A DNA stretch of 64,000 nt from a virus (lineage: Duplodnaviria > Caudoviricetes): IMG/VR virus record IMGVR_UViG_3300027751_000004, positions 1 through 64,000 of that record; one strand, given 5' to 3'. This document shows positions 13,500 through 63,522 of this stretch, in pieces. The translations under genes and the position numbers were made by a program. Position 1 is the stretch's first letter; each line of letters opens with the position of its first letter. The notes under the pieces are model-generated. The model was not told where the DNA came from. It made no database searches and saw nothing but the letters and a program-made list of their open reading frames with translations.

Positions 13500-14348
13500 T
13501 TAGTGGAACTCCTCTACACACTCGATTAGCATATTACAACGATTCTTAATAAGATAATTCAATACTTTCATCTTGGGTGCAGGCTTTGATTCGTTATAGT
13601 TATTTATAATATTTTGTTTTAGCACTTCAGGCATTTCAGATAAATCAATCATTTGTCGGTTACGGCAGAAGTTACGGTATGTCTCTGAATCCATAATCTG
13701 CTCAAGGTCATCAGTATTATGTAGCCATGCTTCTAACTTCTTTTTCGTAATCGGAGATTGACGTAGACCATCAACCAAAGCATTATCAGGGGATAATACA
13801 TTAGGAACACCATCGCTAGAATCGCCACGCATGATATGCTCAAGCAAATATGAACGTGGGTTATTCTCTTTGATTAATGCTTTCTTGTATGGAGAATACT
13901 GAGCCACGTTATCAAACTTGTGTAGCTGTATAAAGTCTTTATCCGCAGATACAATCATAACTGGCTCGTGCTGACCAAACTCCTGAGAGTTGTAAGACAA
14001 AGCACCAATGATATCATCAGCTTCAGCACCTCTAACCTTTAGCACTTTATAAGGGAAGTTATTAGTCAAGTCTTCCGATAGTTGATTGATAGTACCAAAG
14101 ATTAGATCCCAGTTGCGGTCATCTTTATCACGGGACTTCTTACGGTTTGCCTTATACTCAGGGAAAACGTCTTTACGCCAAGAACCACCCTCACAAGCGA
14201 TAACCATTTGACCATATTCCTTACGGAACTTTTTGTTATACATACGGATGGTATTCAAAATAGTATGGCGTATCAGACTCTCGTCTTCGTCTGCTTTATA
14301 GGCGAATATAGAATTTACTGCTACACCATTATAATCTAGAATAATCAT
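13500..14348 (-). CDS. rnh: T4-type RNase H / 5'-3' exonuclease
   Basis: YKANRK, EADDII, SADKDFIQL, GDSSDGVPN. Confidence 0.95.
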   Translation of the reverse strand: MIILDYNGVAVNSIFAYKADEDESLIRHTILNTIRMYNKKFRKEYGQMVIACEGGSWRKDVFPEYKANRKKSRDKDDRNWDLIFGTINQLSEDLTNNFPYKVLKVRGAEADDIIGALSYNSQEFGQHEPVMIVSADKDFIQLHKFDNVAQYSPYKKALIKENNPRSYLLEHIMRGDSSDGVPNVLSPDNALVDGLRQSPITKKKLEAWLHNTDDLEQIMDSETYRNFCRNRQMIDLSEMPEVLKQNIINNYNESKPAPKMKVLNYLIKNRCNMLIECVEEFH

Positions 14349-36569: not shown

Positions 36570-37115
36570 TTATACTATAGATGATAGTATAAAGTCAACT
36601 ACTTTTTTCGTGTCGTCAACGTTTTCGTGCCTCATTTCTTTGACACATCCTTCTTCTTCACCAAATAGAGTAACCTTGTCGCCATACTTCTCAGCAATAC
36701 GACTTACTTTAGTCTTTACAGTTTGGATGAATTTGTCACTTTGGTTTGAACCACGTTGCACGTATCTCCGTTGCCTTTCCTCGTCAGATACAGTCAAGTG
36801 AACAATAACTTTGTCGTCAAAGCAATCAAAGAAACCTCCATTATTGAGTCTGTCACCCTCGCCAATTACTACCTCGTCACGATCTTCGCTATAGTATTCA
36901 ATTGCTTTGGGTGCTACCGCCATTGATAGTCTATCGGTGCCAGAGAACGTCTCTCCTTCCTCGTACTTGCCTAGAACACGTAGGTGTCCAGAGGTATGAC
37001 TATCGAGTAGATCGATTGGTCGGTTAGTAACCCAATCATTATAGCGACTCATAAACTCTTTCATTACAGTAGACTTACCGCATCCTGGAAGTCCAATCAA
37101 ATATATTAGTTTCAT
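36570..37115 (-). CDS. P-loop nucleotide/DNA kinase of a base-modification cluster
   Basis: GLPGCGKS, GTDRLS, EGDRL; adjacent to the transferase. Confidence 0.75.
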   Translation of the reverse strand: MKLIYLIGLPGCGKSTVMKEFMSRYNDWVTNRPIDLLDSHTSGHLRVLGKYEEGETFSGTDRLSMAVAPKAIEYYSEDRDEVVIGEGDRLNNGGFFDCFDDKVIVHLTVSDEERQRRYVQRGSNQSDKFIQTVKTKVSRIAEKYGDKVTLFGEEEGCVKEMRHENVDDTKKVVDFILSSIV

Positions 37116-37124
37116 ATTATACCT

Positions 37125-38144
37125 TTACATAAATGCGTCAAGACCCATTACCACTTGACTGTCTTCGTTAAACATCCAATTCAATCTATCAATGTTGCCA
37201 GTTGATACAAACTCAGAATACTTAGACTTATTGATAACCCTAGTTTCATATACACGCTCGTCTAGAGTTTCCTCACGAGCCTGCCACAATACTTCCCATT
37301 CAATACCAGCCCAGTCATCTGCTTCGACTTTACGGATCTCTTCAGCAACTCTATCATTATAGTAACCCAAGTATCTACCATGATGCTCACGGAATATCTT
37401 CTTGAATGCGCAGAGAGCAGTTTCCATAGTGAATGTATTTAGATCTTTATCAAGGTGAGAGAATCTACTCTTCATCTCAACTAGTATAGACTTTGCCTCA
37501 TCCTCTAGCCACTGATATTCATCTGGCGTAAGTTTAGCATCATACCAATCATCTTTACCGAGAGCCATACACAAACCATTGCGGTGAGATCTAGAACCAC
37601 CATAATCCTTTAAGAGTAAAGTCCTAGGAACGTTAGGTATATGGGCAGTATGGTTTAGATGCTGTAGGAAGAACCAAGTAGAGTATCTACCAAACTTATA
37701 GAACTTGTCTGTAACTGCGTTGTATAGGTTATCAAAGTTGACATACTCGTTATCACCCATAAGAGACTCGAACGATTCACGCTGAGATCTAGATCCAACA
37801 AACTCCGCATAGGACTTGAACATATCTGGCAAATGACCTTTTGACCACTTAGTGTCTGTTTGATATCTGAGACGTTTATAGTTCTCAGTGTTCCAAAGAC
37901 TCATGCGGTCATAGGTAGCAAGTTCGAAGTCGGGGAACTCGTTGATAAGGATCCAAGCGGTCGGCAGATAATATGTGTTGCCATATAACCAAGACAACCA
38001 TATTCTCTGCTCTGAGTTATGCTCGAATCTATCATTGAGGTAGTTAGTCATCCATACGGCAGGGTCGCAGTCTTTATATTCTACCGACCAAGCATACCAC
38101 TTTATGAATGCTTCTCTACGATTTTGTTTTAATCTATAATCCAT
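37125..38144 (-). CDS. amino-acid:DNA transferase (aGPT-Pplase family, HhH-glycosylase fold)
   Basis: DCDP, FGRYSTWFFLQ, METALCAFKK, GRYLGYY; cluster context. Confidence 0.7.
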   Translation of the reverse strand: MDYRLKQNRREAFIKWYAWSVEYKDCDPAVWMTNYLNDRFEHNSEQRIWLSWLYGNTYYLPTAWILINEFPDFELATYDRMSLWNTENYKRLRYQTDTKWSKGHLPDMFKSYAEFVGSRSQRESFESLMGDNEYVNFDNLYNAVTDKFYKFGRYSTWFFLQHLNHTAHIPNVPRTLLLKDYGGSRSHRNGLCMALGKDDWYDAKLTPDEYQWLEDEAKSILVEMKSRFSHLDKDLNTFTMETALCAFKKIFREHHGRYLGYYNDRVAEEIRKVEADDWAGIEWEVLWQAREETLDERVYETRVINKSKYSEFVSTGNIDRLNWMFNEDSQVVMGLDAFM

Positions 38145-38145
38145 A

Positions 38146-39438
38146 TTACTCTTCAAATGCAGGAAGTACATCAACCTGAATATCTAGCTGGTGGAAGTTG
38201 ATGGTATCTTTTAGGTCTTTTAACCAAGAGCCATCTTCATGCTCAGCGATCTCCATCTTAGAAGTATAGTGAAGAACAATAGCACCTTTATCGGCACTGA
38301 CGTTTTTCATTCTACGACATATATAACCAAACGCTTGACCATGTTTTGCTTTAGACATCTGAGCATGAACAGTAGCGATATTATCCTTACCATAGTTTTC
38401 CCATTCATACCGCTCAAAGAACGCATCATCATAAGCAATGATGTTAGATTGATACTTCAGAGATGCCTCTGTTTTCTGTATGCGGTTTTGAACAGACTTA
38501 AACAAACCACTTAGCTTTTTCTTAGAGGGGATTACAAGGATGAATCTATCATAGATTAGTTTCCTTGCTCGCTCCTCTTGTAGCGGTTGCGATATATCAA
38601 GTTTCTGCTCGAGGATGAAGTTTTGCATCTGGCGTTTGATATCTTCATCGCTATTATACTCACGAATCTTATCACCCTCTTTGTTCATTAACATACCAAA
38701 GAAGTTGTAGTTCGTTTTCCTAGTTTTCTCATTAGAGCCAAACTCCGACTCGTTAATAAAGATAACAGGAGCAGTAGATATTCCTCGGACTTTCATAAGG
38801 GCAGCAGTTCGGTTGTTACCATCTAGGATAGTACGCTCGCCATCAGATTTAACCACAACTGTAATCGGGTCGAGTAACTCAGATATCTTCTCTGGGTTCT
38901 CTTCCATAGCGTTTACTAGTTTACTCACATGATGTGGCTTAATAGTTTCTACACGGACTTGGTTCTTACTGTACGATGATAACTGGTTCAAAGGCACTTG
39001 TTGAACATCGTATTTGCTACCTGCTATATTATCGGCAATTGTTTTGATTCTTTGATTCTCATCAGCAAAGGAGTTTTCGATTTCAATACCGTCAGTCTTA
39101 CCCTCGATATAATCAATAATAACTTCCTTCATCTCTGGAGTGATAAGTGCCTCGTCAACACAATGCGCATTATTCTTATAATTGTACATGAGGTCTCTGG
39201 ATACTTTGGTGCCATACTTGAGGGCAAACCACTCAAGGGTTTTTGCGATATCTAGATCTTGCTCTTTGCCCACATAGATTATACTGCGTTTGAGTAGACC
39301 ACAACTGTAGTCTTGCCAAAACTCTGGATTCTCGGATGATGAAATGTAGAATGATTTACCAGCTGGTTGTAACCCGATATACATCTTACTGGATTCAATA
39401 TTGCGATATGCATAAACATATACGTTATTAGTCAACAC
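38146..39438 (-). CDS. GIY-YIG-like N-terminus fused to a ParB/Srx-like domain
   Basis: YVYAYRN...MYIG; PITVV...ILDGNNRTAAL; GTG start with GAGGAG RBS. Confidence 0.55.
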   Translation of the reverse strand: MLTNNVYVYAYRNIESSKMYIGLQPAGKSFYISSSENPEFWQDYSCGLLKRSIIYVGKEQDLDIAKTLEWFALKYGTKVSRDLMYNYKNNAHCVDEALITPEMKEVIIDYIEGKTDGIEIENSFADENQRIKTIADNIAGSKYDVQQVPLNQLSSYSKNQVRVETIKPHHVSKLVNAMEENPEKISELLDPITVVVKSDGERTILDGNNRTAALMKVRGISTAPVIFINESEFGSNEKTRKTNYNFFGMLMNKEGDKIREYNSDEDIKRQMQNFILEQKLDISQPLQEERARKLIYDRFILVIPSKKKLSGLFKSVQNRIQKTEASLKYQSNIIAYDDAFFERYEWENYGKDNIATVHAQMSKAKHGQAFGYICRRMKNVSADKGAIVLHYTSKMEIAEHEDGSWLKDLKDTINFHQLDIQVDVLPAFEE

Positions 39439-39472
39439 GTGCTTTTCTCCTCTATTCGGTCAAGCAAGTAGT

Positions 39473-39501
39473 ATTATATAATAAAATGACACAAAAGTAA
39501 A
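39473..39501 (-). promoter_or_regulatory. early promoter inside the modification cluster
   Basis: TTTACT-17bp-TATAAT. Confidence 0.8.
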
Positions 39502-39509
39502 GGTTTTTT

Positions 39510-40043
39510 TTAAAAGAATTCTGTGAGTCCTTCTGGCTCTACAAACACTTCAACACAACCACCTTTACCTTTCTTGTTTACTGCAGCAAAGATTGTTGGG
39601 TCTGATATATCATAGTAACCATCTTGAAATGTATTATTGATACGGAACATTGATAATTGACATCCGCTTTTCTGTTTACCTAGAAACTGAAACCCACATT
39701 TCTCGTAAAAGGCAACAGCATCTGGCTCGGACGAAACACGGTAGTATAGTGCTTTATCTGCCTTTGCCCTTTGTAAAGATTCGATACAAAGTGTTCTACC
39801 GACCCCTTTACCTCTATGATTAGCAAAAGTATGAAGCAGTTGAAGGTTCGCTACTTTTGGCGAACGTTTTGACACAGTTGTGATGATTGCTCCGAGTAAG
39901 TCGTTACCGTCCCAGAGACCAATGCAATAATCCCACTGCCCCTGCATGTTCGCCTTTGTTACAAATGTTTTGGCGAACTTGTCTGCAGGATCAGTAGTAA
40001 TGGCAGAAGTAAATTCTTCTGCTGTAGTTTTACGCAACTTCAT
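39510..40043 (-). CDS. GNAT acetyltransferase
   Basis: HRGKGVGR acetyl-CoA motif, AVAFYEKCGF. Confidence 0.9.
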   Translation of the reverse strand: MKLRKTTAEEFTSAITTDPADKFAKTFVTKANMQGQWDYCIGLWDGNDLLGAIITTVSKRSPKVANLQLLHTFANHRGKGVGRTLCIESLQRAKADKALYYRVSSEPDAVAFYEKCGFQFLGKQKSGCQLSMFRINNTFQDGYYDISDPTIFAAVNKKGKGGCVEVFVEPEGLTEFF

Positions 40044-40902
40044 GGTATTCACGCTTTTTAGTTCCACGTTCTTTAGCCCATTTAGTTTTCTGATGACCGA
40101 CCCACTGGTTCAAATTCCAATCAAATGGAGGGAACTCATAGTCTCCTTCCGATAGTATTTCTTTTACGCTTGGACCACCGTTTAGGGCAGCATCTATAAA
40201 TGCTTCAACGAAGCGGAACATAGACTCCATATGCTTGCGTTCAGTTGTAGCACGGAAGCAACGGAACTCTATCGTACCAGTGTGTTTCATACAATAGGTA
40301 TTGATAGCATATCTGAAAGGTCTACCCATAGAAACTCCATCCTTACCTGCTGCGTGTAACTTGATAAAGTGATCAAAGTCGGTAGCAAGATTCATGATAT
40401 TGTTTGCCATGTATTCAGGCATTTGACGACCACCATCATACTTCATGTACATCTTAGCACCTTTTGCTTTCTTCATTGAACCAGATTCGTGAAAGAGTCC
40501 GCAGTTCTCGACAACATCAGCTTGGTTATCTTTGATGTACTTTATCAAACGCTTCAGAGCGTCTAGATCTTCAGTCAGCTTTGGTACATAAACATGTAGG
40601 TGAGAATGGCTGAGGCAGTTAGAAGTAGGTTCGCAACCCTGATCAATAAACCACTGTTTAACCTCTTGGATACGGTCTACCTGTCCTTCCCAAGTTTTAG
40701 TCGGTTTGGTATTAACCTCACCGCCAAACGGAGGGTCTTCACCTAGAGGGTCGCAGGCAACGTATCTATAAGGATCTCGTAGATTAACTACGTCAGTCTC
40801 GGAGTATTCCCAACTACCAAGATGTTCGGGTATTTCTAACCTGCGGTCAATATCGCCCCATTCAATTTCATATCCCCAAGTAAAGTCTTTTTTATCATAC
40901 AT
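40030..40902 (-). CDS. amidoligase (glutamine synthetase/COOH-NH2 ligase fold)
   Basis: WGYEIEW, GGEVN, HSHLHV, TIEFRCF. Confidence 0.75.
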   Translation of the reverse strand: MYDKKDFTWGYEIEWGDIDRRLEIPEHLGSWEYSETDVVNLRDPYRYVACDPLGEDPPFGGEVNTKPTKTWEGQVDRIQEVKQWFIDQGCEPTSNCLSHSHLHVYVPKLTEDLDALKRLIKYIKDNQADVVENCGLFHESGSMKKAKGAKMYMKYDGGRQMPEYMANNIMNLATDFDHFIKLHAAGKDGVSMGRPFRYAINTYCMKHTGTIEFRCFRATTERKHMESMFRFVEAFIDAALNGGPSVKEILSEGDYEFPPFDWNLNQWVGHQKTKWAKERGTKKREYHEVA

Positions 40903-40914
40903 AACAATTTACCT

Positions 40915-41529
40915 TTAAGGTTGTAAGTCTTCACCAGCATAATCTACTCGGCTGGTTTCTAAAGTTTTAAATCCACTACGTTTAATAATATCTTGAGTTG
41001 ATGAGTATATCTTACCTCGATCAACTTCGGCTGTCCAAAGTGGACGTTTACCATTACGCATATATTGTATACCATTTCTGTCCAAAAGTAAAGCAGAAAT
41101 TGATGCGGTTTCCCAAGCAGTAGGATCTGGTCGATGAAACAGTAACTCAGAGTCGTTTGCCGTTTCACAATCTAACTCGTATAGATCTTTCCAGTTCTCT
41201 GGTAACTCTTGAGAGATAACCCCATTATGAACAAGAGATAAACCCTCATCCGCAATAGGTTGATTGAATCTAAGGTCAGAAGTGCTATAACGACAATGAG
41301 CAACTGCCTTCATATCTCCATTCTCGTCAACCCAGTCTGCTGGATTATTGTTCTTCATAAACTCAACAGCATCTACTGGCTCTTTAATGGTATGAACCTT
41401 ACCCTCTTTCAGGTAAGATACGCCAGTGGCATGCTTGCCTCTAATCCTAGATTCAATGAATAGGTGACGGATAGAAGATATATCCTTAGCAGTTACGCCA
41501 CTTATCTCAATACCAATTACTGCGCACAC
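40915..41529 (-). CDS. class II (Ntn) glutamine amidotransferase
   Basis: N-terminal MCAVIG, RGKHATG, HCRYST, QP, HNG, NDSE. Confidence 0.9.
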   Translation of the reverse strand: MCAVIGIEISGVTAKDISSIRHLFIESRIRGKHATGVSYLKEGKVHTIKEPVDAVEFMKNNNPADWVDENGDMKAVAHCRYSTSDLRFNQPIADEGLSLVHNGVISQELPENWKDLYELDCETANDSELLFHRPDPTAWETASISALLLDRNGIQYMRNGKRPLWTAEVDRGKIYSSTQDIIKRSGFKTLETSRVDYAGEDLQP

Positions 41530-42941
41530 TAGAAGAACTCCTCCAAACTTGCTTTTTCTTCATATGCTTCAGGGTGGTACTTTTCTACCATTTCTCGACC
41601 ACCAGTAGATTCAAGATACTCGTACCATTCATCAGAGTCCCACATTGAAGGTGATACGCCATTCCATCGATCACGCCACATAGGATGCTCTTTGTTAAGT
41701 CTACGATGATCAACAAACTGTCTGCGGATTACCTCATAGTCATACGAGCCAAGCTGTAGCATATCCTCGCGGAAGTAGAATACTAGCGACATACGAAGCA
41801 TATCATCTTCACCTGAGTCAGGTGCTTCGATCGGAGTGTTACCGTGAATGATTCTCATATTATCTACAAGCAGTAGATCTCCTGGACGAGCATTAATAGC
41901 CATACGAACTTCAGGGCAACAGAGATAACCGCCTTTCCAATCTGTACCATCTTTGGTAACTACTGTTAGATTGCTGAAACCCTCATTCAAAGAACCAGCA
42001 TCACGATGACAAGCCATACGTGCGTTACGATCTTTGGTGGTTGTATTTACAGTAATCGTAGTAAAGGTAGTATCCTCGCCAATAAGGAATCGTTTGTCCA
42101 TTTGCTCAGCGCACTTCTGTTGGCGACCATATCGTACAGGTAGCAAACGTTTGAACTCAGCTTCTAGTTTACGAGCAAACGGATAGCATTTCTCAAAGGT
42201 TGTGCGATTATGCTCAGTGAACGAAGTCGGTCTACCAAACGGAATACGAGGATACCTACCATAGAAGCCAGCAATACCAGACCACAATGCTGCTGCGTAA
42301 GAAGTTTGAGAGATGTAGCTATCATATATTTTCTTAGCCGTAACTGATGCTTCACGCAAGTCAGCATCTCTTAGTTCTTCCATTACAGTGTTAAAGAATG
42401 TGCGGTAATCGCCATAATCATTCTCAACTTTAGATCGTAACCAAACAGAACCACGTGCTTCGTTATTACCGCTACCAAGATACTTTTCTTTGATAGCTTC
42501 AAGAGGATCGGAGCCATCAAGAGATAGCGGTTGACCATCCATGTAATACTTGAGGACTTCTACCTGATAGGGAGTTACCCAATCACGCCCACCACTTTTC
42601 TCTACTCGCTCACCTGCTGCCAAACCACGATTATGAGATTCAACCGCAGCATCGAACAAACCATCAAACGCACCTGATTGCTCGTCTGATGTGAATGTGT
42701 TTTTACGGAACTTGAATGCTATTCTATCTTCATTAAGTTCGCCAACCTCACCATCTACATTAGATTCCGCTGGTAAGTATACGTCGGCATCACTATCAAT
42801 TACGATATCGTAGCTTTCTTCCGTAGCAAATTTACCGAGCAAGTCGTCTTGGTTCTCGACAAAAAGAGCAACATATACGTCTTGCCCCTCATCGCCTTTG
42901 AACTTCTGCCACTTGCGACCATTTATATCAATTATTTCCAT
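41529..42941 (-). CDS. TET/JBP-family 2OG-Fe(II) dioxygenase
   Basis: FTTITVN, CHRDAG (HxD), IHGNTPI, RMSLVFYFRE. Confidence 0.85.
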   Translation of the reverse strand: MEIIDINGRKWQKFKGDEGQDVYVALFVENQDDLLGKFATEESYDIVIDSDADVYLPAESNVDGEVGELNEDRIAFKFRKNTFTSDEQSGAFDGLFDAAVESHNRGLAAGERVEKSGGRDWVTPYQVEVLKYYMDGQPLSLDGSDPLEAIKEKYLGSGNNEARGSVWLRSKVENDYGDYRTFFNTVMEELRDADLREASVTAKKIYDSYISQTSYAAALWSGIAGFYGRYPRIPFGRPTSFTEHNRTTFEKCYPFARKLEAEFKRLLPVRYGRQQKCAEQMDKRFLIGEDTTFTTITVNTTTKDRNARMACHRDAGSLNEGFSNLTVVTKDGTDWKGGYLCCPEVRMAINARPGDLLLVDNMRIIHGNTPIEAPDSGEDDMLRMSLVFYFREDMLQLGSYDYEVIRRQFVDHRRLNKEHPMWRDRWNGVSPSMWDSDEWYEYLESTGGREMVEKYHPEAYEEKASLEEFF

Positions 42942-42964
42942 AATATTCTCCTAATACAACGCAT

Positions 42965-42993
42965 ATTATACTATACTTCATACTAAATGTCAA
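42965..42993 (-). promoter_or_regulatory. perfect-consensus sigma70 promoter of the modification cluster
   Basis: TTGACA-17bp-TATAAT. Confidence 0.85.
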
Positions 42994-43372
42994 GCACTTT
43001 TTTCAAATCAGGTTCAGAATAATCTGGACCCTTTAGAATCTTACCATCTTCACGATAGATGGGTTTACCATCCTCGCCCAACTTACTCATATTAGATCTT
43101 TGTACCTCACGGAAACAAGCGTCAAGGTCAATACCAAATGCGTGTCCTGCGCCATAGGTAACATATAGAATATCAGTTAGTGCGTCAGCAACCTCAACCA
43201 TATCCTTTTCTGCCATTGCTACAAATAGTTCTTGTAGTTCTTCTTTGATAAGTTCGTATCGTAGAGCAACAGTATCTAAATCTGGGAACTCAGGCGATCG
43301 CTTTACTTCCTGCCCAAAGGCATCCATAAAGACATTTACTTTGTTAAAGTTTGTTTGGTAATAGTGTGTCAT
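42983..43372 (-). CDS. MazG-like NTP pyrophosphohydrolase
   Basis: LIKEELQEL, EVADALTDILYV, EVQRSNMSK. Confidence 0.85.
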   Translation of the reverse strand: MTHYYQTNFNKVNVFMDAFGQEVKRSPEFPDLDTVALRYELIKEELQELFVAMAEKDMVEVADALTDILYVTYGAGHAFGIDLDACFREVQRSNMSKLGEDGKPIYREDGKILKGPDYSEPDLKKVLDI

Positions 43373-45894
43373 TGAAAAAAGTCCTCTAGTGATATTTTCT
43401 CTTCTTCGTTCCAGCCGATTGCGGCAAGTATTGGTCTAACAACTTCCAAGAATGCTTTGTCGAACTGGAGGTCATAGTCAACGTATTTATGCAGCTTTAA
43501 ATCTTCGGGTAAGAAGTCTGGGAATGCGATTACATTTTCTTTAATAGGGTTTGGTACTTTAAGATAGGCAAACTTTATCTTTTCGCCATCTTTGATTGTT
43601 TGATACTTACGACCCAAGCCATTAGTCTCAATTTGATTATTGTAGAGTAATGACCCACGAACATGAATAGGTGTACCCTTCCTATAGATGAGTTGGCGGT
43701 CTACCCAATTAGTTACATTAGAAACTCCACGAGGGAATGCTACATCCTCTGGCGGTAGAGTGATAAAGTAATCCTTGAACTGCTTGATTGCCATTTGGGT
43801 TGTAGCTTCATCCTGAGTTATGATAACCTTGAACAACTCTTTGAGTGCTTTACGACAAGATGCGGGAGTAGAGGATTTAACTGCTTCGATACCCATAATC
43901 TTGAGTTTAGGTTCTGCGTATTGAACACCCTCGTTATTATGTACGTTTAGTATGTAACGTTTCTTAGCAGTCCAGATACCAGCATCAGCAATAGCTTCAC
44001 GAGCCATGACCATCTTGTTCTCATAAGCATCCATATACTCAGCTAGGTCGCCATAAGAATTTTCTAGCATAGGCTCGAACTGTTCAGAACAGACCTTATC
44101 AAGCATCTTTACAGTTTCAGCTTTGGGTAAGTCTTTGAAGTATTTATCGACGAGAGGTTCAAAGTTAATATACAACGAATCAGTATCGATGGCGATAACA
44201 TAATCTTTATCTTCTCCGATAATCTTGGACATGAATCGATTAACTGCCTGCTCTGCCCACCTGATCGATAACTGACCTGATAGCGTAATACCCTCAGCAA
44301 TACGCAGGTCAAAGTAACGGAACCAGCGATTACCAATAGCACCATAGAGAGAATTCATCATAATCTTGATAGCCATCTGTTCATTATCGAGAGTGGATAT
44401 CTTTTTCTCTAGTTGATATACTTCGGTCTTTTTAGTTTTATCAACGCCCTCTAGTTCCTGCGTGGCATCTAGCATCTGACGCTTTACTTGTTTCCTGCCA
44501 GCATATAGACTACCAACAACCTCAGGAATAACTCCACAAATATCCTTACGATAATGCGAACCATTTGCTGCCATGGTACAGTCGGGGCGTGCACTTTGAG
44601 GTTTACGACCCGACAAACAAGCATCAACGTTCACCCCCATAGTCGCATCATTTACGATAGTCTCGGGAGACATATTGTACTGCATAATCAGGTGAGGGTA
44701 TAGAGAGTTTAAGTCAAAGGAAACGACCCAAGCATGGCGACCAACCATAGGACTTTTAACAAAACCTCCAGGAAAGTCAGTCTTCATCTTTTCTTGTTTG
44801 GGCGGTACTGCTGTTTTCTTTTCGTATAGTTCTCGATAGAGGAACGTATCCCAAATACCAGTAGTACCAAACGCATCGCTGTAGTTTACCCCAGCTTTGT
44901 ACGCCAGAGTCATACACAAGGTGATGAGACCCATCTTATCTTCTAGTCGGTCAACTAGTTCTACGTCTTTGATATTATAGTCAACGAACTTCTGGTGATC
45001 GTGTTTGTACAGAGTAAAGAGATTACCATACTCCTCATAGGATAACTTGTTCTCCCCCAAAACAACATGGGCAATATGGTCAAGTTTGTATGACTCTTCG
45101 GCAGTATAGGTAAACTTCCTATAGAGATCCAAATAATCTATCTGCTCAACACCTTTGATCTCAAACTTCTGCTCGGTCTTACCTTTGATAGTAACCTTGC
45201 GCTCGTCGATTTTACCCCAAGGTGATAGTTTCTTAGCCATATCCTGACCAATCACTTTAGTTATTCGGTTGATCATATAGGTCATATCAAACAGAGTTGA
45301 GTTCCAACCAGTAATTACATCTGGCATGAACCGAGCATTAGACCAATGGGTAACAAACTCCATAAGTAATCTGGCTTCGGACTCGCACTTCTTGTAGATA
45401 ACTTGATTGTCCTGCATAATGGACTTAGAGGTATCGTAGTCGCCCAGACCCCAAACATAATATATGTTATCGATATTATTCTTAAGAGTAATTGTGATTA
45501 CTGGGTGATCTGCATATTGAGGTTCAGGGAATCCCTCGTCGGAAGCGACCTCAATATCGATGGTAGTGACATTGATAATGTCACGATTGAACTCAATAGT
45601 TCCTGGATACTTTTCCTGAACATACTGAGCAATGTAATTTGTATTGCCGTGAATCTTGAAGTTAGAGGTATCCCCATATTGCTGGATAAACTCCCTTGCT
45701 TCACGCATTGTATCGAAGTCTATTGGCTTGAGTGGTGCACCTGTTAAGGATTTCCAATCACCGCCTTCAGCTGGGACATATAGGGTTGGTGAGAAACGGA
45801 CACGTTCGGAATATTTATTCCCATCACGATATCCACGGACAAGTATGTCGTTAGAGAATCTGCTAACTGAGGTGTAGAAAGTATTATTCATCAT
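43369..45894 (-). CDS. 43: family B DNA polymerase gp43
   Basis: DIEV exo I, SFDLNSLYPH, KIMMNSLYG, IDTDS, KKRY; no intein or intron. Confidence 0.97.
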   Translation of the reverse strand: MMNNTFYTSVSRFSNDILVRGYRDGNKYSERVRFSPTLYVPAEGGDWKSLTGAPLKPIDFDTMREAREFIQQYGDTSNFKIHGNTNYIAQYVQEKYPGTIEFNRDIINVTTIDIEVASDEGFPEPQYADHPVITITLKNNIDNIYYVWGLGDYDTSKSIMQDNQVIYKKCESEARLLMEFVTHWSNARFMPDVITGWNSTLFDMTYMINRITKVIGQDMAKKLSPWGKIDERKVTIKGKTEQKFEIKGVEQIDYLDLYRKFTYTAEESYKLDHIAHVVLGENKLSYEEYGNLFTLYKHDHQKFVDYNIKDVELVDRLEDKMGLITLCMTLAYKAGVNYSDAFGTTGIWDTFLYRELYEKKTAVPPKQEKMKTDFPGGFVKSPMVGRHAWVVSFDLNSLYPHLIMQYNMSPETIVNDATMGVNVDACLSGRKPQSARPDCTMAANGSHYRKDICGVIPEVVGSLYAGRKQVKRQMLDATQELEGVDKTKKTEVYQLEKKISTLDNEQMAIKIMMNSLYGAIGNRWFRYFDLRIAEGITLSGQLSIRWAEQAVNRFMSKIIGEDKDYVIAIDTDSLYINFEPLVDKYFKDLPKAETVKMLDKVCSEQFEPMLENSYGDLAEYMDAYENKMVMAREAIADAGIWTAKKRYILNVHNNEGVQYAEPKLKIMGIEAVKSSTPASCRKALKELFKVIITQDEATTQMAIKQFKDYFITLPPEDVAFPRGVSNVTNWVDRQLIYRKGTPIHVRGSLLYNNQIETNGLGRKYQTIKDGEKIKFAYLKVPNPIKENVIAFPDFLPEDLKLHKYVDYDLQFDKAFLEVVRPILAAIGWNEEEKISLEDFFQ

Positions 45895-45901
45895 ATAGTA
45901 T

Positions 45902-45930
45902 ATTATACCGCATTTAATGGTAAAAGTCAA
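45902..45930 (-). promoter_or_regulatory. sigma70-type promoter abutting the gp43 start
   Basis: TTGACT-17bp-TATAAT. Confidence 0.75.
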
Positions 45931-47560: not shown

Positions 47561-47977
47561 TTACTTTACACCTATGTTGTACTTTGGACAAAGTTCCCAG
47601 TCGTGTTTTTCTTTATGAGAGATAATCTTAATCTGCCTTAATGGTGCTTTATTTTCTGCTTGTTCTTCTTCAACAAGATCTAATAAACCCCAGTCAGACA
47701 ACAAAGTCGCAATGGTGTTTCTCCTTTCTACGTCATTCTCCATAAGGTTACTCGGTTTACCATCCAACATAAAGAGTTCTTTAAAATGAATGATAAAGTA
47801 TCTACCTTGCTTGTGTAATATATGACAAGACTGATACAGTTTGTTATCCTTACGAGAAGCCACACCCATTCTCGTCAACGTTTCACGAACTTTTAAAAAG
47901 TCGTCAGGATGGCTTAATCGTACTTCCAGCATTGAAGCTGGAGTCCACTCAATTGGTTTTTGATCTTCTAGTTCCAC
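47561..47977 (-). CDS. regA: translational repressor RegA
   Basis: DDFLKVRETLTRMG, LYQSCHILHKQGRY, HFKELF. Confidence 0.95.
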   Translation of the reverse strand: MELEDQKPIEWTPASMLEVRLSHPDDFLKVRETLTRMGVASRKDNKLYQSCHILHKQGRYFIIHFKELFMLDGKPSNLMENDVERRNTIATLLSDWGLLDLVEEEQAENKAPLRQIKIISHKEKHDWELCPKYNIGVK

Positions 47978-48341
47978 CTTTATCTACCTTATTCTTCAAT
48001 TCAATTAATTGTTCATCAGATAGCAATCGTAACGCCTCACGTGCTCTCTCACTGCCATAACCGAAGTATTCTTTGACCACTTCGATGTTATCAAGGGAAT
48101 CTGCTTTTGCCCACTTGGAGAAGCGTTTTCCCTTCCTAATACTATTTATAAGATAATGAAACTGCAGTTTGTTATCAAGGTGGTGATAACGATTCATCTC
48201 ATTTGCAAACAGTATTGTATCTAGGAACTGTGAGAGACCACGGTTCACGATAAATGGGTTATATCCTTTCTCAGCATCATCATCTACCATTATATCTTTT
48301 TTGGAAGAGTTGATTGACTTTAAGAACTCGAATGGGTTCAT
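47949..48341 (-). CDS. 62: clamp loader small subunit gp62
   Basis: YNPFIVNRGLS, ANEMN, KRFSKW; synteny. Confidence 0.9.
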   Translation of the reverse strand: MNPFEFLKSINSSKKDIMVDDDAEKGYNPFIVNRGLSQFLDTILFANEMNRYHHLDNKLQFHYLINSIRKGKRFSKWAKADSLDNIEVVKEYFGYGSERAREALRLLSDEQLIELKNKVDKGGTRRSKTN

Positions 48342-49276
48342 CGTTTAAACTCCACGGATCCCATAACCTCAGTCATACAAGCAACAAGGTTAAGTTCGTG
48401 GTCAGCAACAAACGCATCTTTGTATTGATAGTCTGCTAGGATAATAACAAGTTGAGGGATAGAGTTTGGCTCTACGAAATCATACATCGTGTCGTAGATT
48501 CTACGGAACACAACAGAGGGTTCTACGTCCATATTATTAGCAACCCATGAACGCATAGACTTGAAGTTCTTTTTCTTGAGGTAATCTACAAGAGACTTGA
48601 TATTCTCGTCTTGAAGGTTGATCAATATACCAGCATCAATTGTACCAGATAAAGAATATCTCTGACACTCATTGATTACTCGACGGAAGTCAGGGAAGTG
48701 TTTGTTAACTAGTTCTACAATTACTTTTTGGTCGTAGGTTACTCCCTCACTAGTTAGTATCTCGCACACACGCTTGAACATACCAGCAGCAAGGTTTGGC
48801 TTTTCGTCTTTGGGAATATTGAAATCATAGACCGAACAACGAGAATGTAGTGGTTCAATGATCTTGTTTTTGAAGTTACAGGTTAGGATAAATCTACAGT
48901 TATTGGCAAACTCTTCAATAAACCCACGCAAAGCAGGTTGAGTAGATTGCGCATTCAGATAATCAGCCTCATCTAGGATAACCACTTTGTAACCACCCTG
49001 TAGTGAAACAGTAGAAGCAAAGTGACGAATCTTAGTACGCAGGGTATCAATATTACCGCTTTCAGATCCGTTTATGATTATCCAATCCAACCCCAACTCA
49101 TTACACAATGCTTTAGCGACTGTCGTTTTACCGACACCAGCCGTACCAGTGAAGAGCATATTAGGAAGCTCTCCACCGCTTACGATTTCGCTGAAAGTTT
49201 TGTTGAGTTGAGTTGGTAGGATAGCTTGATCAATTGTAGCTGGGCGGTATTTCTCCACCCAAAGGAAGTCGCTCAT
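48338..49276 (-). CDS. 44: clamp loader large subunit gp44
   Basis: LWVEKYRP, GTAGVGKT, DEAD, SRC. Confidence 0.95.
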   Translation of the reverse strand: MSDFLWVEKYRPATIDQAILPTQLNKTFSEIVSGGELPNMLFTGTAGVGKTTVAKALCNELGLDWIIINGSESGNIDTLRTKIRHFASTVSLQGGYKVVILDEADYLNAQSTQPALRGFIEEFANNCRFILTCNFKNKIIEPLHSRCSVYDFNIPKDEKPNLAAGMFKRVCEILTSEGVTYDQKVIVELVNKHFPDFRRVINECQRYSLSGTIDAGILINLQDENIKSLVDYLKKKNFKSMRSWVANNMDVEPSVVFRRIYDTMYDFVEPNSIPQLVIILADYQYKDAFVADHELNLVACMTEVMGSVEFKR

Positions 49277-59032: not shown

Positions 59033-59710
59033 TTATGCATTAAACTTTGAATTTTTCTCAAGGGCAACCCAGTATGTTACTTCACCAGTCGCAAATTGAG
59101 AGATTAATTTAGACGAGATAGACACTTTCATATCACCACCAACAAACTTAAAGTTAGAGATATTGAAGATCATCTCGAATGAAGAGTCAGGTCGAGTAGC
59201 AGACGGGATAGACATTTCATAACTGTTAGAGGTAGAGTCTTTAGTATCGGTCACCTTAACAGTAACGCCAGAACCACCTTCTTCACCTACAACCACAACG
59301 TCACTAGAACCTAGTGCAGCTGCCGCACGTCGAATAGAAGACAATTGATCTTCAGTAATGTCCAGTTCAATCTCGCAAGCAGGCATAGTAATGTCTTTTT
59401 GCGGAGTAGTTAGGATAGAAGCATCAGAGAAGAAGTAGTTTACAGACTGACCACCCTCGCTAATCTTAACAGTCTTACCATCATCGCCAAACTCGAGGTC
59501 TGGGTCTTCAAACATACCTACAACCGAAAGGAATTCATTCAGGTCATAGATACCAAAATCCTGAGGGAAAGATTCAGCAACATTGGCTGTCGCTAGAATA
59601 TTCTTTGCTTCAGAAATAGTTTTGATTACGTTACCAGCCTTTACAACGATATTGGGATTAATCGTTGAGAAGTTCTTTAGCATCGCAACCGTTTCATTCG
59701 AGATTTTCAT
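59033..59710 (-). CDS. 45: sliding clamp gp45
   Basis: LKNFSTINPNI, FGIYDLNEFL, YWVALE. Confidence 0.93.
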   Translation of the reverse strand: MKISNETVAMLKNFSTINPNIVVKAGNVIKTISEAKNILATANVAESFPQDFGIYDLNEFLSVVGMFEDPDLEFGDDGKTVKISEGGQSVNYFFSDASILTTPQKDITMPACEIELDITEDQLSSIRRAAAALGSSDVVVVGEEGGSGVTVKVTDTKDSTSNSYEMSIPSATRPDSSFEMIFNISNFKFVGGDMKVSISSKLISQFATGEVTYWVALEKNSKFNA

Positions 59711-60171: not shown

Positions 60172-61344
60172 CTAGAAAGCAGGTTCGTCATTATCAATAG
60201 CATCTAACACATCACCTAGATTTACTTCAGGGGCGACCTCATTAGAGTCAATTTTACTGTATAAGTCTAAGAAGGCAGACTTTGTATCTTCATCAAAACG
60301 GTTTACACATAACTCAATAGATCTAGCACGGTCATTAAAGATAGAAAACGTTTGAGCAATGTGACATAGGCGACGAGTAGAAATAATATCTTCAACACCA
60401 CCATCAGCATAAGTCTTGCGAATAATCTCAGACCAAGTAGTTAGCTTATCAGCAAAGTCAGTATCAACCGCACCAAACTTATCCATATGGTTCAGTAGGA
60501 TCTTTTTCTCTATTGCGAGAGAAGGGTAAGGTTGCTCAACAGTAATACTGAATCGCTCCAGGAATGCTTCATCAATAATCGTAGCAGCAACAAACCTGCC
60601 ATCTTCCGAACCTTGACCTTTGGTGTTAGCAGTAGCAATCACGTTGAATCCAGGAGCAGGAGTAATCATCTCACCAGTTTTCTTAATCATAACTGGCTTA
60701 CCCTCAAGAACACCCTGAAGAGCCATCAAACGATTAGAAGAACGATCAACTTCATCGATCAGAAGTATCGCACCAGCTTCCATCGCTTTGATAACTGGAC
60801 CCTTTTGGAAAACTGTCTCACCGTTGATCAAACGGAAACCACCGATTAGATCATCCTCATCAGTCTCAGGAGTAATCTGAACACGGACATACTCACGCTT
60901 AGATTTAGCGCACGCTTGCTCGACCATCATTGTTTTACCATTACCAGATAGACCAGTAATAAAGGTTGGGTAGAACATACCCGAATCAATAATAGTTTTA
61001 ATGTCTTTGAAGTTACCCCAGCTGACATAAGTAGAGTCAGCAGAAGGAACATAGACTTCATTGTTAGTAACAGATTGTACAGCAGTCATTAAAGGTTTTC
61101 TCTCAGCTGGAGCATTAGAAGTTTGCTCAGCATTAACATTACGGAAAGGAAGGATCTGAGCTTCCAAATTCCAAACACCACGTGAAATTTTATTATCGGC
61201 AATCATCACCTCACGGTAGACTCTACCTTTTGCAACGCCAGTAGCATCGCAGGCATCATATATATCTTTGTTACGGAAGTGGCTTCGGTCAGGAAAACGT
61301 TTAGCCAACTCACTGTAAAGTGGAGCAAAAGCATATGTACTCAT
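60172..61344 (-). CDS. MoxR/CobS-like AAA+ ATPase
   Basis: GLSGNGKT, DEDDLIGG, LLIDE, TANTKG, FLERF, STRRL. Confidence 0.9.
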   Translation of the reverse strand: MSTYAFAPLYSELAKRFPDRSHFRNKDIYDACDATGVAKGRVYREVMIADNKISRGVWNLEAQILPFRNVNAEQTSNAPAERKPLMTAVQSVTNNEVYVPSADSTYVSWGNFKDIKTIIDSGMFYPTFITGLSGNGKTMMVEQACAKSKREYVRVQITPETDEDDLIGGFRLINGETVFQKGPVIKAMEAGAILLIDEVDRSSNRLMALQGVLEGKPVMIKKTGEMITPAPGFNVIATANTKGQGSEDGRFVAATIIDEAFLERFSITVEQPYPSLAIEKKILLNHMDKFGAVDTDFADKLTTWSEIIRKTYADGGVEDIISTRRLCHIAQTFSIFNDRARSIELCVNRFDEDTKSAFLDLYSKIDSNEVAPEVNLGDVLDAIDNDEPAF

Positions 61345-61386
61345 AATATAATCTCTCTCTAATCAATTAACTCATTCAATACACAT

Positions 61387-61415
61387 ATTATACTACATTT
61401 AAACCCAAAAGTAAA
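61387..61415 (-). promoter_or_regulatory. early sigma70-type promoter
   Basis: TTTACT-17bp-TATAAT. Confidence 0.8.
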
Positions 61416-61443
61416 GGGTTTTTTAAACTTTTTTGATCTTTTT

Positions 61444-63522
61444 TTAAGCGACCATCTCAGCAAACTTACTAGCAAGAACACGGTTGCCTTTCTTAGACTT
61501 AGCAAACTTCTTAAACTCACGAGTCAGCGCACCTTTAGAATCATCTTTAGGGGCAAAGTCCGTAGTAGCAGTATCCAACTTTGTAGTTCTCAGGAAGAAG
61601 TATCTATCGAAACCTAACTGGTCATCAACAGATACACCGCCTTTTCTCCAGTCAGTAAGGACAGGTCTGATCTCTTGCTCAGTGTCATAACCTTTACCCT
61701 CGGAGCGATACAAACGATATCTAACATCATTGGCTCGGTTAGTTAGGAAGTAACAAACCGTATTACAGCCAGTATGTTTTTTCAACGACTCAACCAGAGT
61801 TTGAGTACCAGCATAGTTAGTCTTACAATTGATACGCTCGCCACCTACAGTGAACACCATTCGATTAGAGTTAAAGTAGCCATCGTTCATATCGTGAACT
61901 TGCGCATAGTCATAACGAATAGTGTTAGTATCACCATCACTCAGCAGAGTAAAGTTTACTTTGTCAAGACCATAAGTATCACGGAAGTCAGGAATCAAAG
62001 TATGCATAGCAATCAATGCCTGATTCAGAGGAGTACCACCCATCATTTCATGCGTAGACTCATGGAAGTTATAGATTTGATAACAAGCAGTTTCAAAGTC
62101 TTTCTTGCTCATCTCATTAGAAAGTAACTCAAACAGAGACATAGATTCCCAATCAATAACGTGTTTAAAGTTACGCTCTTTAAGACCATTAGAAGTAAAC
62201 CCATAAACACGGAAAGGGATATTCACTTTACGACAAAAGTGTGCGATATTGATAGCTTGTTTCTTTACATTAGCAATACAATCATCCATAGAGCCAGAGT
62301 AGTCAACCAACATTACCAGACCATGATTCTTAGCATCAGCCAGCTTGGTAGTTCTAGCGAAGATATCTTCGTTGTATTTGTAAGAGTATAGTTTAGTAAC
62401 ATCAATAGAACCAGTCTTAGAAGTTCTAGATCTTGAATAGCGATATGCAGCTTTCTTCATCTCAAACTCACGAGCCATAGTATTAACTACAGACTTGGTC
62501 TCAGCCAAGAACTCATCATAAGATTGGGTCACGTATCTACGCTGATACCAATGAGTGTTTTCATCAGACCTTTCATTAATAAGAGTTTTGTAATCAGCAA
62601 CAAGACTCTTGGCTTCCTTTAAAGTTAGGGAGCGAACAACTACAGGGGAACTATCACCATCATGGCTTTCTAGAAGATCAGACTCTTTAGAACGGAACGC
62701 TTCATCAGTCTCAACGATTTCGTTACCAGCACCAGCATTGCTAGAGAATCCTTCCTCAATATCTTTACTTACATCTTCCTCGCTATCTTCAGTATCCTCT
62801 CCTTCGATTTCTTCGACAACGTCTTGTTGTTCGCTGTCCATTTCACTATCTTTACTCTCAGGAATGCCAGATTGATTGTCAGTTGAAGGTGAATCCTCTG
62901 TACTTTTTTCCATACTTTCTTCATCGTTATCCCCCTCAGGATTTTCATTTTGATTTTGAGCTTGATCCTGTTGTTTCTCAACACCTACATAGTCAAGTAA
63001 AGATCTAGCAGCATCAACAACTTCTTCCCACGTTTCAGCAGAGAAACATTTCTTTACTACAGGAAGTTCGTCTTTATCAAATGTAATATCTACTAGTTGG
63101 TTCAGTTTGGCTTTAATATTGATACGGTCGGGCAAACCATAGGAAGAATATTCCCTATCCTGAGTACCAAAGAAGTTTTCGTCAAACAAAACTTGATAAC
63201 CACCTTGGAACGACTTAACTAATCCTGGATACTTACTACGGATCATTCGCTCAATGCGGATATCTTCAATAATGTTAAGGAATGAACGAGGAATACCCTC
63301 GACATCTATTTCGGAATCATGCCAACCCTCTCTAGGAGTAAACAAAGCATGACCGACCTCATGACCGATAAGCAGGTCTTGAACATCAGCACCTTTGTCT
63401 TTCCATAGGGGAAGATTTAGAACACGGTTAATAACATCAAACGATGCGGTCTGGTAGTTACCCTCACGCACCTCAATGTTTTCATTAGCAAGCAATCTAG
63501 CTAGAGTAGATTTAACTGTCAT
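61444..63522 (-). CDS. CobT-like protein: metallopeptidase-like N-terminus, acidic linker, vWA domain
   Basis: HEVGHAL (HExxH), NIIEDIRIE, DYSGS MIDAS, GGTPL, LSDGD. Confidence 0.85.
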   Translation of the reverse strand: MTVKSTLARLLANENIEVREGNYQTASFDVINRVLNLPLWKDKGADVQDLLIGHEVGHALFTPREGWHDSEIDVEGIPRSFLNIIEDIRIERMIRSKYPGLVKSFQGGYQVLFDENFFGTQDREYSSYGLPDRINIKAKLNQLVDITFDKDELPVVKKCFSAETWEEVVDAARSLLDYVGVEKQQDQAQNQNENPEGDNDEESMEKSTEDSPSTDNQSGIPESKDSEMDSEQQDVVEEIEGEDTEDSEEDVSKDIEEGFSSNAGAGNEIVETDEAFRSKESDLLESHDGDSSPVVVRSLTLKEAKSLVADYKTLINERSDENTHWYQRRYVTQSYDEFLAETKSVVNTMAREFEMKKAAYRYSRSRTSKTGSIDVTKLYSYKYNEDIFARTTKLADAKNHGLVMLVDYSGSMDDCIANVKKQAINIAHFCRKVNIPFRVYGFTSNGLKERNFKHVIDWESMSLFELLSNEMSKKDFETACYQIYNFHESTHEMMGGTPLNQALIAMHTLIPDFRDTYGLDKVNFTLLSDGDTNTIRYDYAQVHDMNDGYFNSNRMVFTVGGERINCKTNYAGTQTLVESLKKHTGCNTVCYFLTNRANDVRYRLYRSEGKGYDTEQEIRPVLTDWRKGGVSVDDQLGFDRYFFLRTTKLDTATTDFAPKDDSKGALTREFKKFAKSKKGNRVLASKFAEMVA

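Follow-up and report, generated by a model that had tools for sequence, protein, structure and literature searches.

How a phage that alters the bases of its DNA can restrict such drastic chemistry to its own genome, and can complete it ahead of attack by host nucleases, is a question that has yet to be answered, and it is raised by a cluster of modification genes lying beside the DNA polymerase gene of a marine T4-like phage. We have analyzed this cluster in a window of 64,000 nt (positions 1 to 64,000 of the IMG/VR record IMGVR_UViG_3300027751_000004; the whole stretch of DNA under study), which belongs to a phage genome of the T4 type with 120,033 bp and 39% GC on one contig. A preliminary description of the window had proposed that three modification enzymes share a clamp-binding C-terminal motif with the polymerase gp43 and are tethered to the sliding clamp gp45, and this tethering is supported here by the enrichment of the motif in the proteome, its conservation, its alignment with the RB69 polymerase, its covariation with the polymerase tail, a predicted interface and a charge switch in the clamp pocket. 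On the basis of these sequence comparisons and models, we consider with a probability of roughly 0.78 that the C-terminal tails of a TET/JBP-type dioxygenase, a GNAT acyltransferase and an amino acid:DNA transferase are gp45-docking peptides that tether the modification enzymes to the clamp, and it is likely that the enzymes modify newly replicated phage DNA while attached to the clamp. The proteins central to the argument are the following.

43369-45930, minus strand: gp43, family-B DNA polymerase (phmmer search against PDB: RB69 gp43, E 6.5e-129); tail SLEDFFQ at 43372-43392.
41529-42941, minus strand: TET/JBP-type 2-oxoglutarate/iron dioxygenase (TET; Pfam PF12851); tail EEKASLEEFF at 41532-41561.
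39510-40067, minus strand: GNAT acyltransferase (Pfam PF13673 and PF00583); tail GLTEFF at 39513-39530.
37125-38174, minus strand: amino acid:DNA transferase (ADDT, also called aGPT-Pplase; Pfam PF18724); tail GLDAFM at 37128-37145.
59033-59710, minus strand: gp45 sliding clamp, the proposed receptor (Pfam PF09116 and PF02916).

The three enzymes belong to their families with scores well above the respective cut-offs: 59.4 bits against a gathering cut-off of 34.9 for TET (PF12851), the substrate of which may be thymine or 5-methylcytosine; 68.9 against the gathering cut-off of 26.2 for ADDT (PF18724); and, for GNAT, 45.6 against 23.6 (PF13673) and 38.3 against 20.7 (PF00583). All C-termini quoted in the preliminary description are present, namely ISLEDFFQ of gp43, ASLEEFF of TET, GLTEFF of GNAT, GLDAFM of ADDT and VEEFH of an RNase H, to which we return below. 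TET, GNAT and ADDT end on the motif core itself and gp43 ends one residue after it, so that the motif occupies the extreme C-terminus in each case; in GNAT it is an appendage following the enzyme core, which closes with GGCVEVF. SLEEFF, GLTEFF and GLDAFM have the hydrophobic and acidic composition and the Leu-x-x-[FL]-[FLYM] core that are found in SLDFLF and SLDFLY of T4 and in SLFDMF of RB69.

When the 139 open reading frames called in the whole genome were scanned, the motif L..F[FM] matched 7 of 37,130 internal positions, corresponding to 0.05 expected matches at C-termini, and six C-termini were observed to carry it (Poisson P ~3e-11); with the stricter motif having a small residue ahead of L, there were no internal and again six terminal matches. 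The six carriers are gp43, TET, GNAT, ADDT, the late sigma factor gp55, which ends with NLELFMG, and a gp26-like hub protein of the baseplate, which ends with GLQSFF, the genes of the last two lying outside the 64-kb window. In a ranking of 138 proteins by the likeness of their C-termini to the final 10 residues of gp43, TET came first, and GNAT and the gp26-like protein were tied in the second place. Shortness of the motif is the only point favoring a chance likeness or a DNA element repeated at gene ends, an explanation to which we give practically no credence. Because six carriers were seen against 0.05 expected, chance resemblance is untenable, and because the codons differ among the four tails in the window (TCA or AGT for Ser; CTA, TTG, CTC or CTT for Leu), these are neither a DNA repeat nor the product of recent duplication. 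The codons differ also between homologues, and the tail has been conserved with synonymous change over hundreds of relatives. On the proteome statistics and the differing codons, both chance and a DNA repeat were rejected.

The tail of the polymerase connects this motif with an established ligand of the clamp. gp43 of this genome aligns to RB69 gp43 column for column through its last residues (EEKISLEDFF against EKKASLFDMF), and the polymerase of the same genome therefore bears the motif at the position of the crystallized RB69 peptide. RB69 gp45 has been co-crystallized with the 11 C-terminal residues of the polymerase, bound in a hydrophobic pocket, and T4 gp43, gp55 and gp33 have C-termini, both hydrophobic and acidic, that can stand in for one another as gp45 ligands (PMC2988020). 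The T4 C-termini used for comparison were EEKASLDFLFG of gp43 and SLDFLYEAND of gp55, and the relatives of the gp55 of this genome keep [LIV]ELFMG or DL[ST]xF[ML].

The other genes of the cluster, against which the conservation of the tails can be judged, are listed here.

42983-43372, minus strand: MazG-like pyrophosphatase.
40915-41529, minus strand: class-II glutamine amidotransferase (Pfam PF13522), without an aromatic tail.
40030-40902, minus strand: amidoligase-like protein (weak match to Pfam PF12224, under the cut-off), without the tail.
38146-39438, minus strand: ParB-like fusion protein (ParB-like match in PHROGs), C-terminus VLPAFEE.
36570-37115, minus strand: P-loop kinase, a candidate 5-hydroxymethyldeoxyuridine (5-hmdU) DNA kinase (Pfam PF18751), without the tail in this lineage.
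Listed after the P-loop kinase, minus strand: a primase-like gene, then UvsX.

About 118 of the 120 best relatives of TET (at least 61% identity) end with [ST]L[ED]xF[FL] followed by 0-1 residues, and of 79 IMG/VR loci, 77 encode a TET that retains it; these loci, down to 45% identity, were used also for the tail counts of neighboring genes and for pairing polymerases with TETs. For ADDT, a terminal GL[ED]x[FW] with 0-2 residues behind it was found in about 118 of 120 relatives and in all 35 of the loci having the gene, and the gp43 tail is present in 18 of 18 related loci. In neighbors at these loci the tail is lacking: kinase (0/37, with freely variable C-termini), MazG (0/7), primase-like protein (0/11), UvsX (0/8) and gp45 (0/12), as well as amidotransferase (0/13) and amidoligase (0/20) of the cluster itself. 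Among 120 GNAT homologues, 53 end with L..[FWY] as an appended tail and about one third are short forms stopping at the core, a distribution which, in these alignments, is the behavior of an optional short linear motif. Conservation among homologues, by which the preliminary description proposed to judge its idea, was therefore found for TET, ADDT and gp43 and only in part for GNAT. In related loci the tail occurs also on other enzymes encoded beside TET: TET-associated glycosyltransferases (TAGT; PF20691), a GT1 glycosyltransferase and a second type of GNAT. As to DNA of cultured phages, we found none nearly identical to this genome, and the nearest cultured relatives match at the protein level only.

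In the TET family, residues 460-465 are variable, and L466, E467, F469 and F470 behind them are conserved. The AlphaFold2 (AF2) model of TET has a mean predicted local distance difference test (pLDDT) score of 81.7, which falls from 90-94 in the preceding domain to 59 over residues 461-470. This variable stretch, the low tail pLDDT and the existence of GNAT with and without the appendage are features of a peptide carried on a linker, and they bear on another explanation, in which the tails are degradation or turnover tags or are part of each enzyme's own fold. Hydrophobic C-termini can serve as protease tags, and a structural protein, the gp26-like protein, has a look-alike tail. We nevertheless regard this explanation as very improbable: the tail follows a variable linker on at least six unrelated folds, GNAT exists in both forms, the AF2 confidence is low at the tail and high in the domain before it, and a degron would hardly covary with the polymerase tail and with the charge of the clamp pocket across lineages.

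Such covariation is the strongest evidence for docking on the clamp. In ViI-like phages, D503, Cygsa01, PhiW-14, DLP_6 and Cr30, all of them cultured, the polymerase has a different tail, and the tails of some modification enzymes have changed in step with it, as is characteristic of ligands co-evolving with a receptor. In Vi01 the polymerase ends with VNLLSMMGKKG, ADDT with VNLMSLLKR, the kinase with VSLLGLMRKA and a 70-aa protein with VNLLSLMRK (0 internal matches); the polymerases of Menlow and LIMEstone1 both end with VNLLAMM and basic residues, and their ADDTs and kinases with VNLMSLMKK and NVLAMMLRK in the former and VSLLGLLKR and SLLDLMKKG in the latter. Vibrio phage D503 has a different type of tail, ARKLW on its polymerase, and its ADDT, guanylate-kinase-like kinase, PF18723 5-hmdU kinase and a 99-aa protein end with [KR][KR]LW, which has no internal match, the carriers ranking 1-4 of 215 proteins. 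In Pseudomonas phage Cygsa01, the enzyme tails were found first (NVFDLF of the kinase, SVLDLF of the PF18723 kinase and DLMGFFQ of ADDT), and the polymerase, retrieved afterwards, fitted the pattern with SVMDFFS. Polymerase and ADDT end with LGAFFV and LGSFFR in PhiW-14; polymerase, TET and glycosyltransferase with ATLDSFFA, ATLGDFFV and DLSSFFN in DLP_6; and polymerase and a glycosyltransferase-like protein with DLSSLFD and DLSKLF in Cr30. Covariation emerges only when lineages with plainly distinct types of tail are compared. The preliminary description had also suggested a comparison with phages lacking the clamp; in two small phages, HTVC112P and P12024L, in neither of which a gp43 homologue was detected, the TET homologues are short and tail-less. 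Mycobacteriophage BobbyK proved uninformative, having no gp43 homologue and an ADDT tail that is unclassifiable.

On the side of the clamp, the structure prediction of gp45 with a tail peptide that had been suggested earlier was run for TET, using three copies of gp45 and TET residues 421-470, and the complex, predicted with our own alignments that lie outside the calibration of the method, obtained a score of 0.63; the three controls scored 0.00-0.01, the best of them 0.01. In the calibration, this mark is attained by 58 of 80 solved complexes and by 2 of 110 mismatched pairs. The contacts agreed between runs at a level of at least 53%, and the partner pLDDT was at least 49. The predicted interface involves only residues 462-470 of TET and, on a single gp45 subunit, residues 32, 35-39, 104-110, 183, 186, 201-203 and 214-219; among 33 clamps, 13 of the 23 predicted contact positions are invariant, compared with 43 of 225 positions overall (Fisher P 2e-5). 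The model supports binding but does not demonstrate it; what it shows is likeness. When clamps of seven lineages were aligned, two of the predicted contact positions, 105 and 201, proved to be occupied by Lys or Arg in each of the five lineages with acidic tails, and by Asp or Glu in Vi01 and D503, where the tails are basic; in addition, the clamp of D503 is unusually acidic.

These data allow us to weigh the view that the tail docks on another hub, such as the single-strand binding protein, the helicase loader or the polymerase, or that the tailed proteins bind one another. Acidic-aromatic C-terminal peptides serve other hubs, for example the tails of bacterial single-strand binding proteins, and the support for gp45 in this phage consists of sequence and models only. 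We think this view improbable, however, on four grounds: the gp43 tail is positionally homologous to the RB69 peptide crystallized on gp45, gp55 is an established clamp ligand with the same type of tail, the charge of the clamp pocket switches with that of the tail, and the interface was predicted to lie at the conserved pocket of the C face, the controls scoring 0.00-0.01.

Several observations weigh against docking on gp45 as a general explanation, or against parts of its support. The GNAT tail is missing in about one third to one half of the homologues, so that clamp tethering would be optional for the GNAT step, and the P-loop kinase of this lineage is tail-less, which indicates that tethering is not obligatory at every step. 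The ADDT tail GLDAFM is a moderate match to the gp43 tail and lies outside the top 10 by similarity. The ADDT of Cr30 is tail-less; in two loci (L373 and L376) the TET tail KKKVSLWS mismatches the polymerase tail LSAFFTNV of the same contig; and within the marine clade, comparison of gp43 with TET contig by contig showed that neither the S/T before Leu nor the trailing residue tracks. The success of the complex prediction may partly be memory, because a similar RB69 gp45-peptide complex has been solved, and its alignments fell outside the calibration. The seven-lineage clamp alignment is of low identity, and a structural alignment is needed for the charge switch. The gp26-like hub protein, for which no clamp role is known, bears a look-alike tail that is conserved over many T4-like phages. 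Furthermore, T4 alpha-glucosyltransferase (alpha-GT), beta-GT and Dam have no polymerase-like tail. An alpha-GT-gp45 interaction was proposed from in vitro work and is disputed in a preprint of 2025, which reports no co-purification of alpha-GT with gp45, C-terminal His tags having been used (10.64898/2025.12.06.692756). The tail-less T4 glucosyltransferases and the reported lack of alpha-GT-gp45 binding mean that clamp tethering is not universal.

If the tails do dock on gp45, the following mechanism can be proposed, in which the clamp loader takes part.

47949-49276, minus strand: clamp loader gp44/gp62, consisting of gp62 at 47949-48341 (phrog_225, 2.4e-46) and gp44 at 48338-49276 (phrog_168, 6e-122).

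The last 6-10 residues of TET, GNAT and ADDT would be docking peptides of the same kind as the C-termini of gp43 and gp55, each on a short flexible linker, with the Leu and the two aromatic residues inserted into the hydrophobic C-face pocket of one gp45 subunit. gp44/gp62 loads gp45 onto replicating phage DNA, both at primer-template junctions and at nicks. Since the trimeric gp45 has three pockets, the enzyme tails could fill free pockets or occupy clamps left behind the fork. Riding on, or recruited to, clamps on new DNA, the enzymes would modify thymine there, possibly in the order of oxidation by TET, transfer by ADDT and acylation by GNAT; kinases and glycosyltransferases would use the clamp likewise in other lineages. 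Docking would raise the local concentration of the enzymes and let them scan along new DNA, and host DNA, which is not copied by the phage machinery, would bear few clamps. The timing of modification behind the fork, the discrimination between phage and host DNA, the physical binding and the order of the steps are what we infer.

It is also conceivable that the enzymes are clamp-bound and act away from the fork, on clamps left on replicated DNA or loaded at its nicks; they would slide along the duplex as a one-dimensional search device, and the tails might also regulate clamp occupancy. Late transcription in T4 employs nick-loaded clamps together with this C-terminal epitope (PMC2988020), PMC13229309 describes phage T-dioxygenases as post-replicative, and the gp55 of this genome bears the same type of tail. 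Clamps near the fork and clamps left behind are indistinguishable at the level of sequence, and the scheme refines the model of clamp docking and does not oppose it. We put its likelihood well below an even chance, high enough for it to be taken seriously. Extending clamp docking from this locus to T4-like, ViI-like and related large phages, and to dioxygenases, kinases, amino-acid transferases, glycosyltransferases and acyltransferases, the polymerase C-terminal peptide would be a lineage-specific clamp address code and whole post-replicative hypermodification pathways a clamp-bound toolbelt, a generalization which we hold to be evenly balanced between right and wrong.

Proteins with similar C-termini outside the modification enzymes, two of which are encoded as follows, require separate comment.

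13500-14348, minus strand: RNase H/FEN-like exonuclease (PHROGs phrog_107), C-terminus VEEFH.
118777-119481 of the genome, plus strand (L003:14777-15481): gp26-like hub protein (phrog_150) with two CxxC pairs, ending with GLQSFF.

The RNase H tail had been described as a weaker match, and it is indeed present and conserved: 80 of 80 related loci end with an EEF-type sequence ([CSV]VEEFx, in one case IEDFY), optionally extended by NG or NA, a pattern compatible with a clamp motif or with a part of the fold. The tail of the gp26-like protein is kept as GL/GI-x-x-FF in relatives (41-47% identity), in cyanophages P-HM1 and S-SSM6b, and in PhiW-14; either the protein is an unrecognized clamp client, or motifs of this class are not confined to ligands of the clamp. 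A weak and less terminal match in the tail-tube protein of Vi01, which is unrelated to the gp26-like protein, was regarded as chance. In the ParB-like fusion protein, 9 of 12 relatives end with an LPxF-type sequence or LDAF, and VLPAFEE may be a degenerate clamp motif, consisting of LPxF and acidic residues, or may be unrelated.

Small proteins of the phrog_4789 family (70-99 aa) carry the polymerase-type tail of their own lineage, Vi01_049c (L131:856-1068) that of Vi01 and VPHD503_0077 (L132:1092-1391) that of D503, and a 103-aa protein of Cygsa01 ends with SLLDFF; judged by their C-termini, these are candidate clamp clients, perhaps a gp33-like factor. The large terminase of Cygsa01 (L219:1-1710) ends with GGSLDDFFNN, near to the polymerase tail SVMDFFS. 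HNH endonucleases adjoining TET in related marine phages have clamp-type tails, TLEEFLA (L342:8887-9375) and TLEEFFV (L377:8005-8676). The amidotransferase (EDLQP) and the amidoligase-like protein (REYHEVA type) have conserved C-termini of their own, unlike the clamp-type tail. Sugar-nucleotide enzymes encoded next to TET were only partly usable as a clean negative control: UDP-galactopyranose mutase is tail-less, and an epimerase has a look-alike. The latter, an NAD-dependent epimerase/dehydratase beside TET (L009:11320-12072 and L012:6696-7451) whose expected substrates are sugar nucleotides, ends with TLEEIV or ELEDIV, an aliphatic version. The neighbors of gp45 at 60172-63522 (minus strand), a CobS/MoxR-like AAA ATPase (390 aa, phrog_249) and a protein of 692 aa that contains an extended acidic stretch of low complexity, are outside the finding on the tails.

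The idea that T4 glucosylation is tethered to the clamp has been debated for twenty years and has lately been disputed. Here the link is in sequence: at least six unrelated enzyme families bear the polymerase's putative clamp peptide. From one phage lineage to another, this peptide varies along with the polymerase and, it seems, with the clamp pocket as well. If this is true, the polymerase tail of such phages predicts their clamp clients from sequence alone, including unexpected ones such as the gp26 hub protein, the small phrog_4789 protein, HNH endonucleases and the terminase, and the tail can distinguish enzymes acting on DNA from those acting on precursors in uncharacterized modification clusters. 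C-terminal tags would mask the clamp interaction, which is a warning for experiments.

Among known systems, the tails resemble the epitopes of T4/RB69 gp43, gp55 and gp33 in their extreme C-terminal location, hydrophobic and acidic composition, Leu-x-x-aromatic-aromatic core and variable linker; the core is LE.FF here and LDFLF in T4, and the carriers here are base-modifying enzymes, unlike the replication and transcription proteins of T4/RB69. The aforementioned proposal on T4 alpha-GT is the same idea of a modifying enzyme working from the clamp during replication, and the canonical tail, missing from alpha-GT and beta-GT, is present on the enzymes described here. PIP boxes are found in the PCNA clients of eukaryotes, an example being the maintenance methyltransferase DNMT1. 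As in DNMT1-PCNA, a modifying enzyme would be brought to the clamp by a short h-x-x-aromatic-aromatic peptide; unlike in PIP clients, the motif is strictly C-terminal, the clamp is the gp45 trimer of a phage and the reaction is a hypermodification of thymine. The conserved Gln of the PIP box (Q-x-x-h-x-x-a-a) is absent from the TET and gp43 tails, in which the position is K, T, S or variable, and only the h-x-x-a-a half is present. The enzyme families (PF18724, PF18723 and PF12851) are those of phage thymidine hypermodification in ViI, M6 and PhiW-14, where a 5-hmdU kinase acts with aGPT-Pplase/ADDT, and of the phage T-dioxygenases. The cluster has a ParB-like gene, and phage T-dioxygenases that depend on ParB partners appear in PMC13229309, in the available portion of which "clamp" denotes the ParB CTPase clamp, not the replicative clamp. 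In the full-text literature, within the incomplete coverage of our search, we found no paper tying the replicative clamp to TET, ADDT, 5-hmdU kinases or TAGT. Clamp epitopes at C-termini are established, as are clamp "toolbelts". What appears to be new is the occurrence of clamp-type tails on DNA base-modifying enzymes, the clamp epitopes themselves being known.

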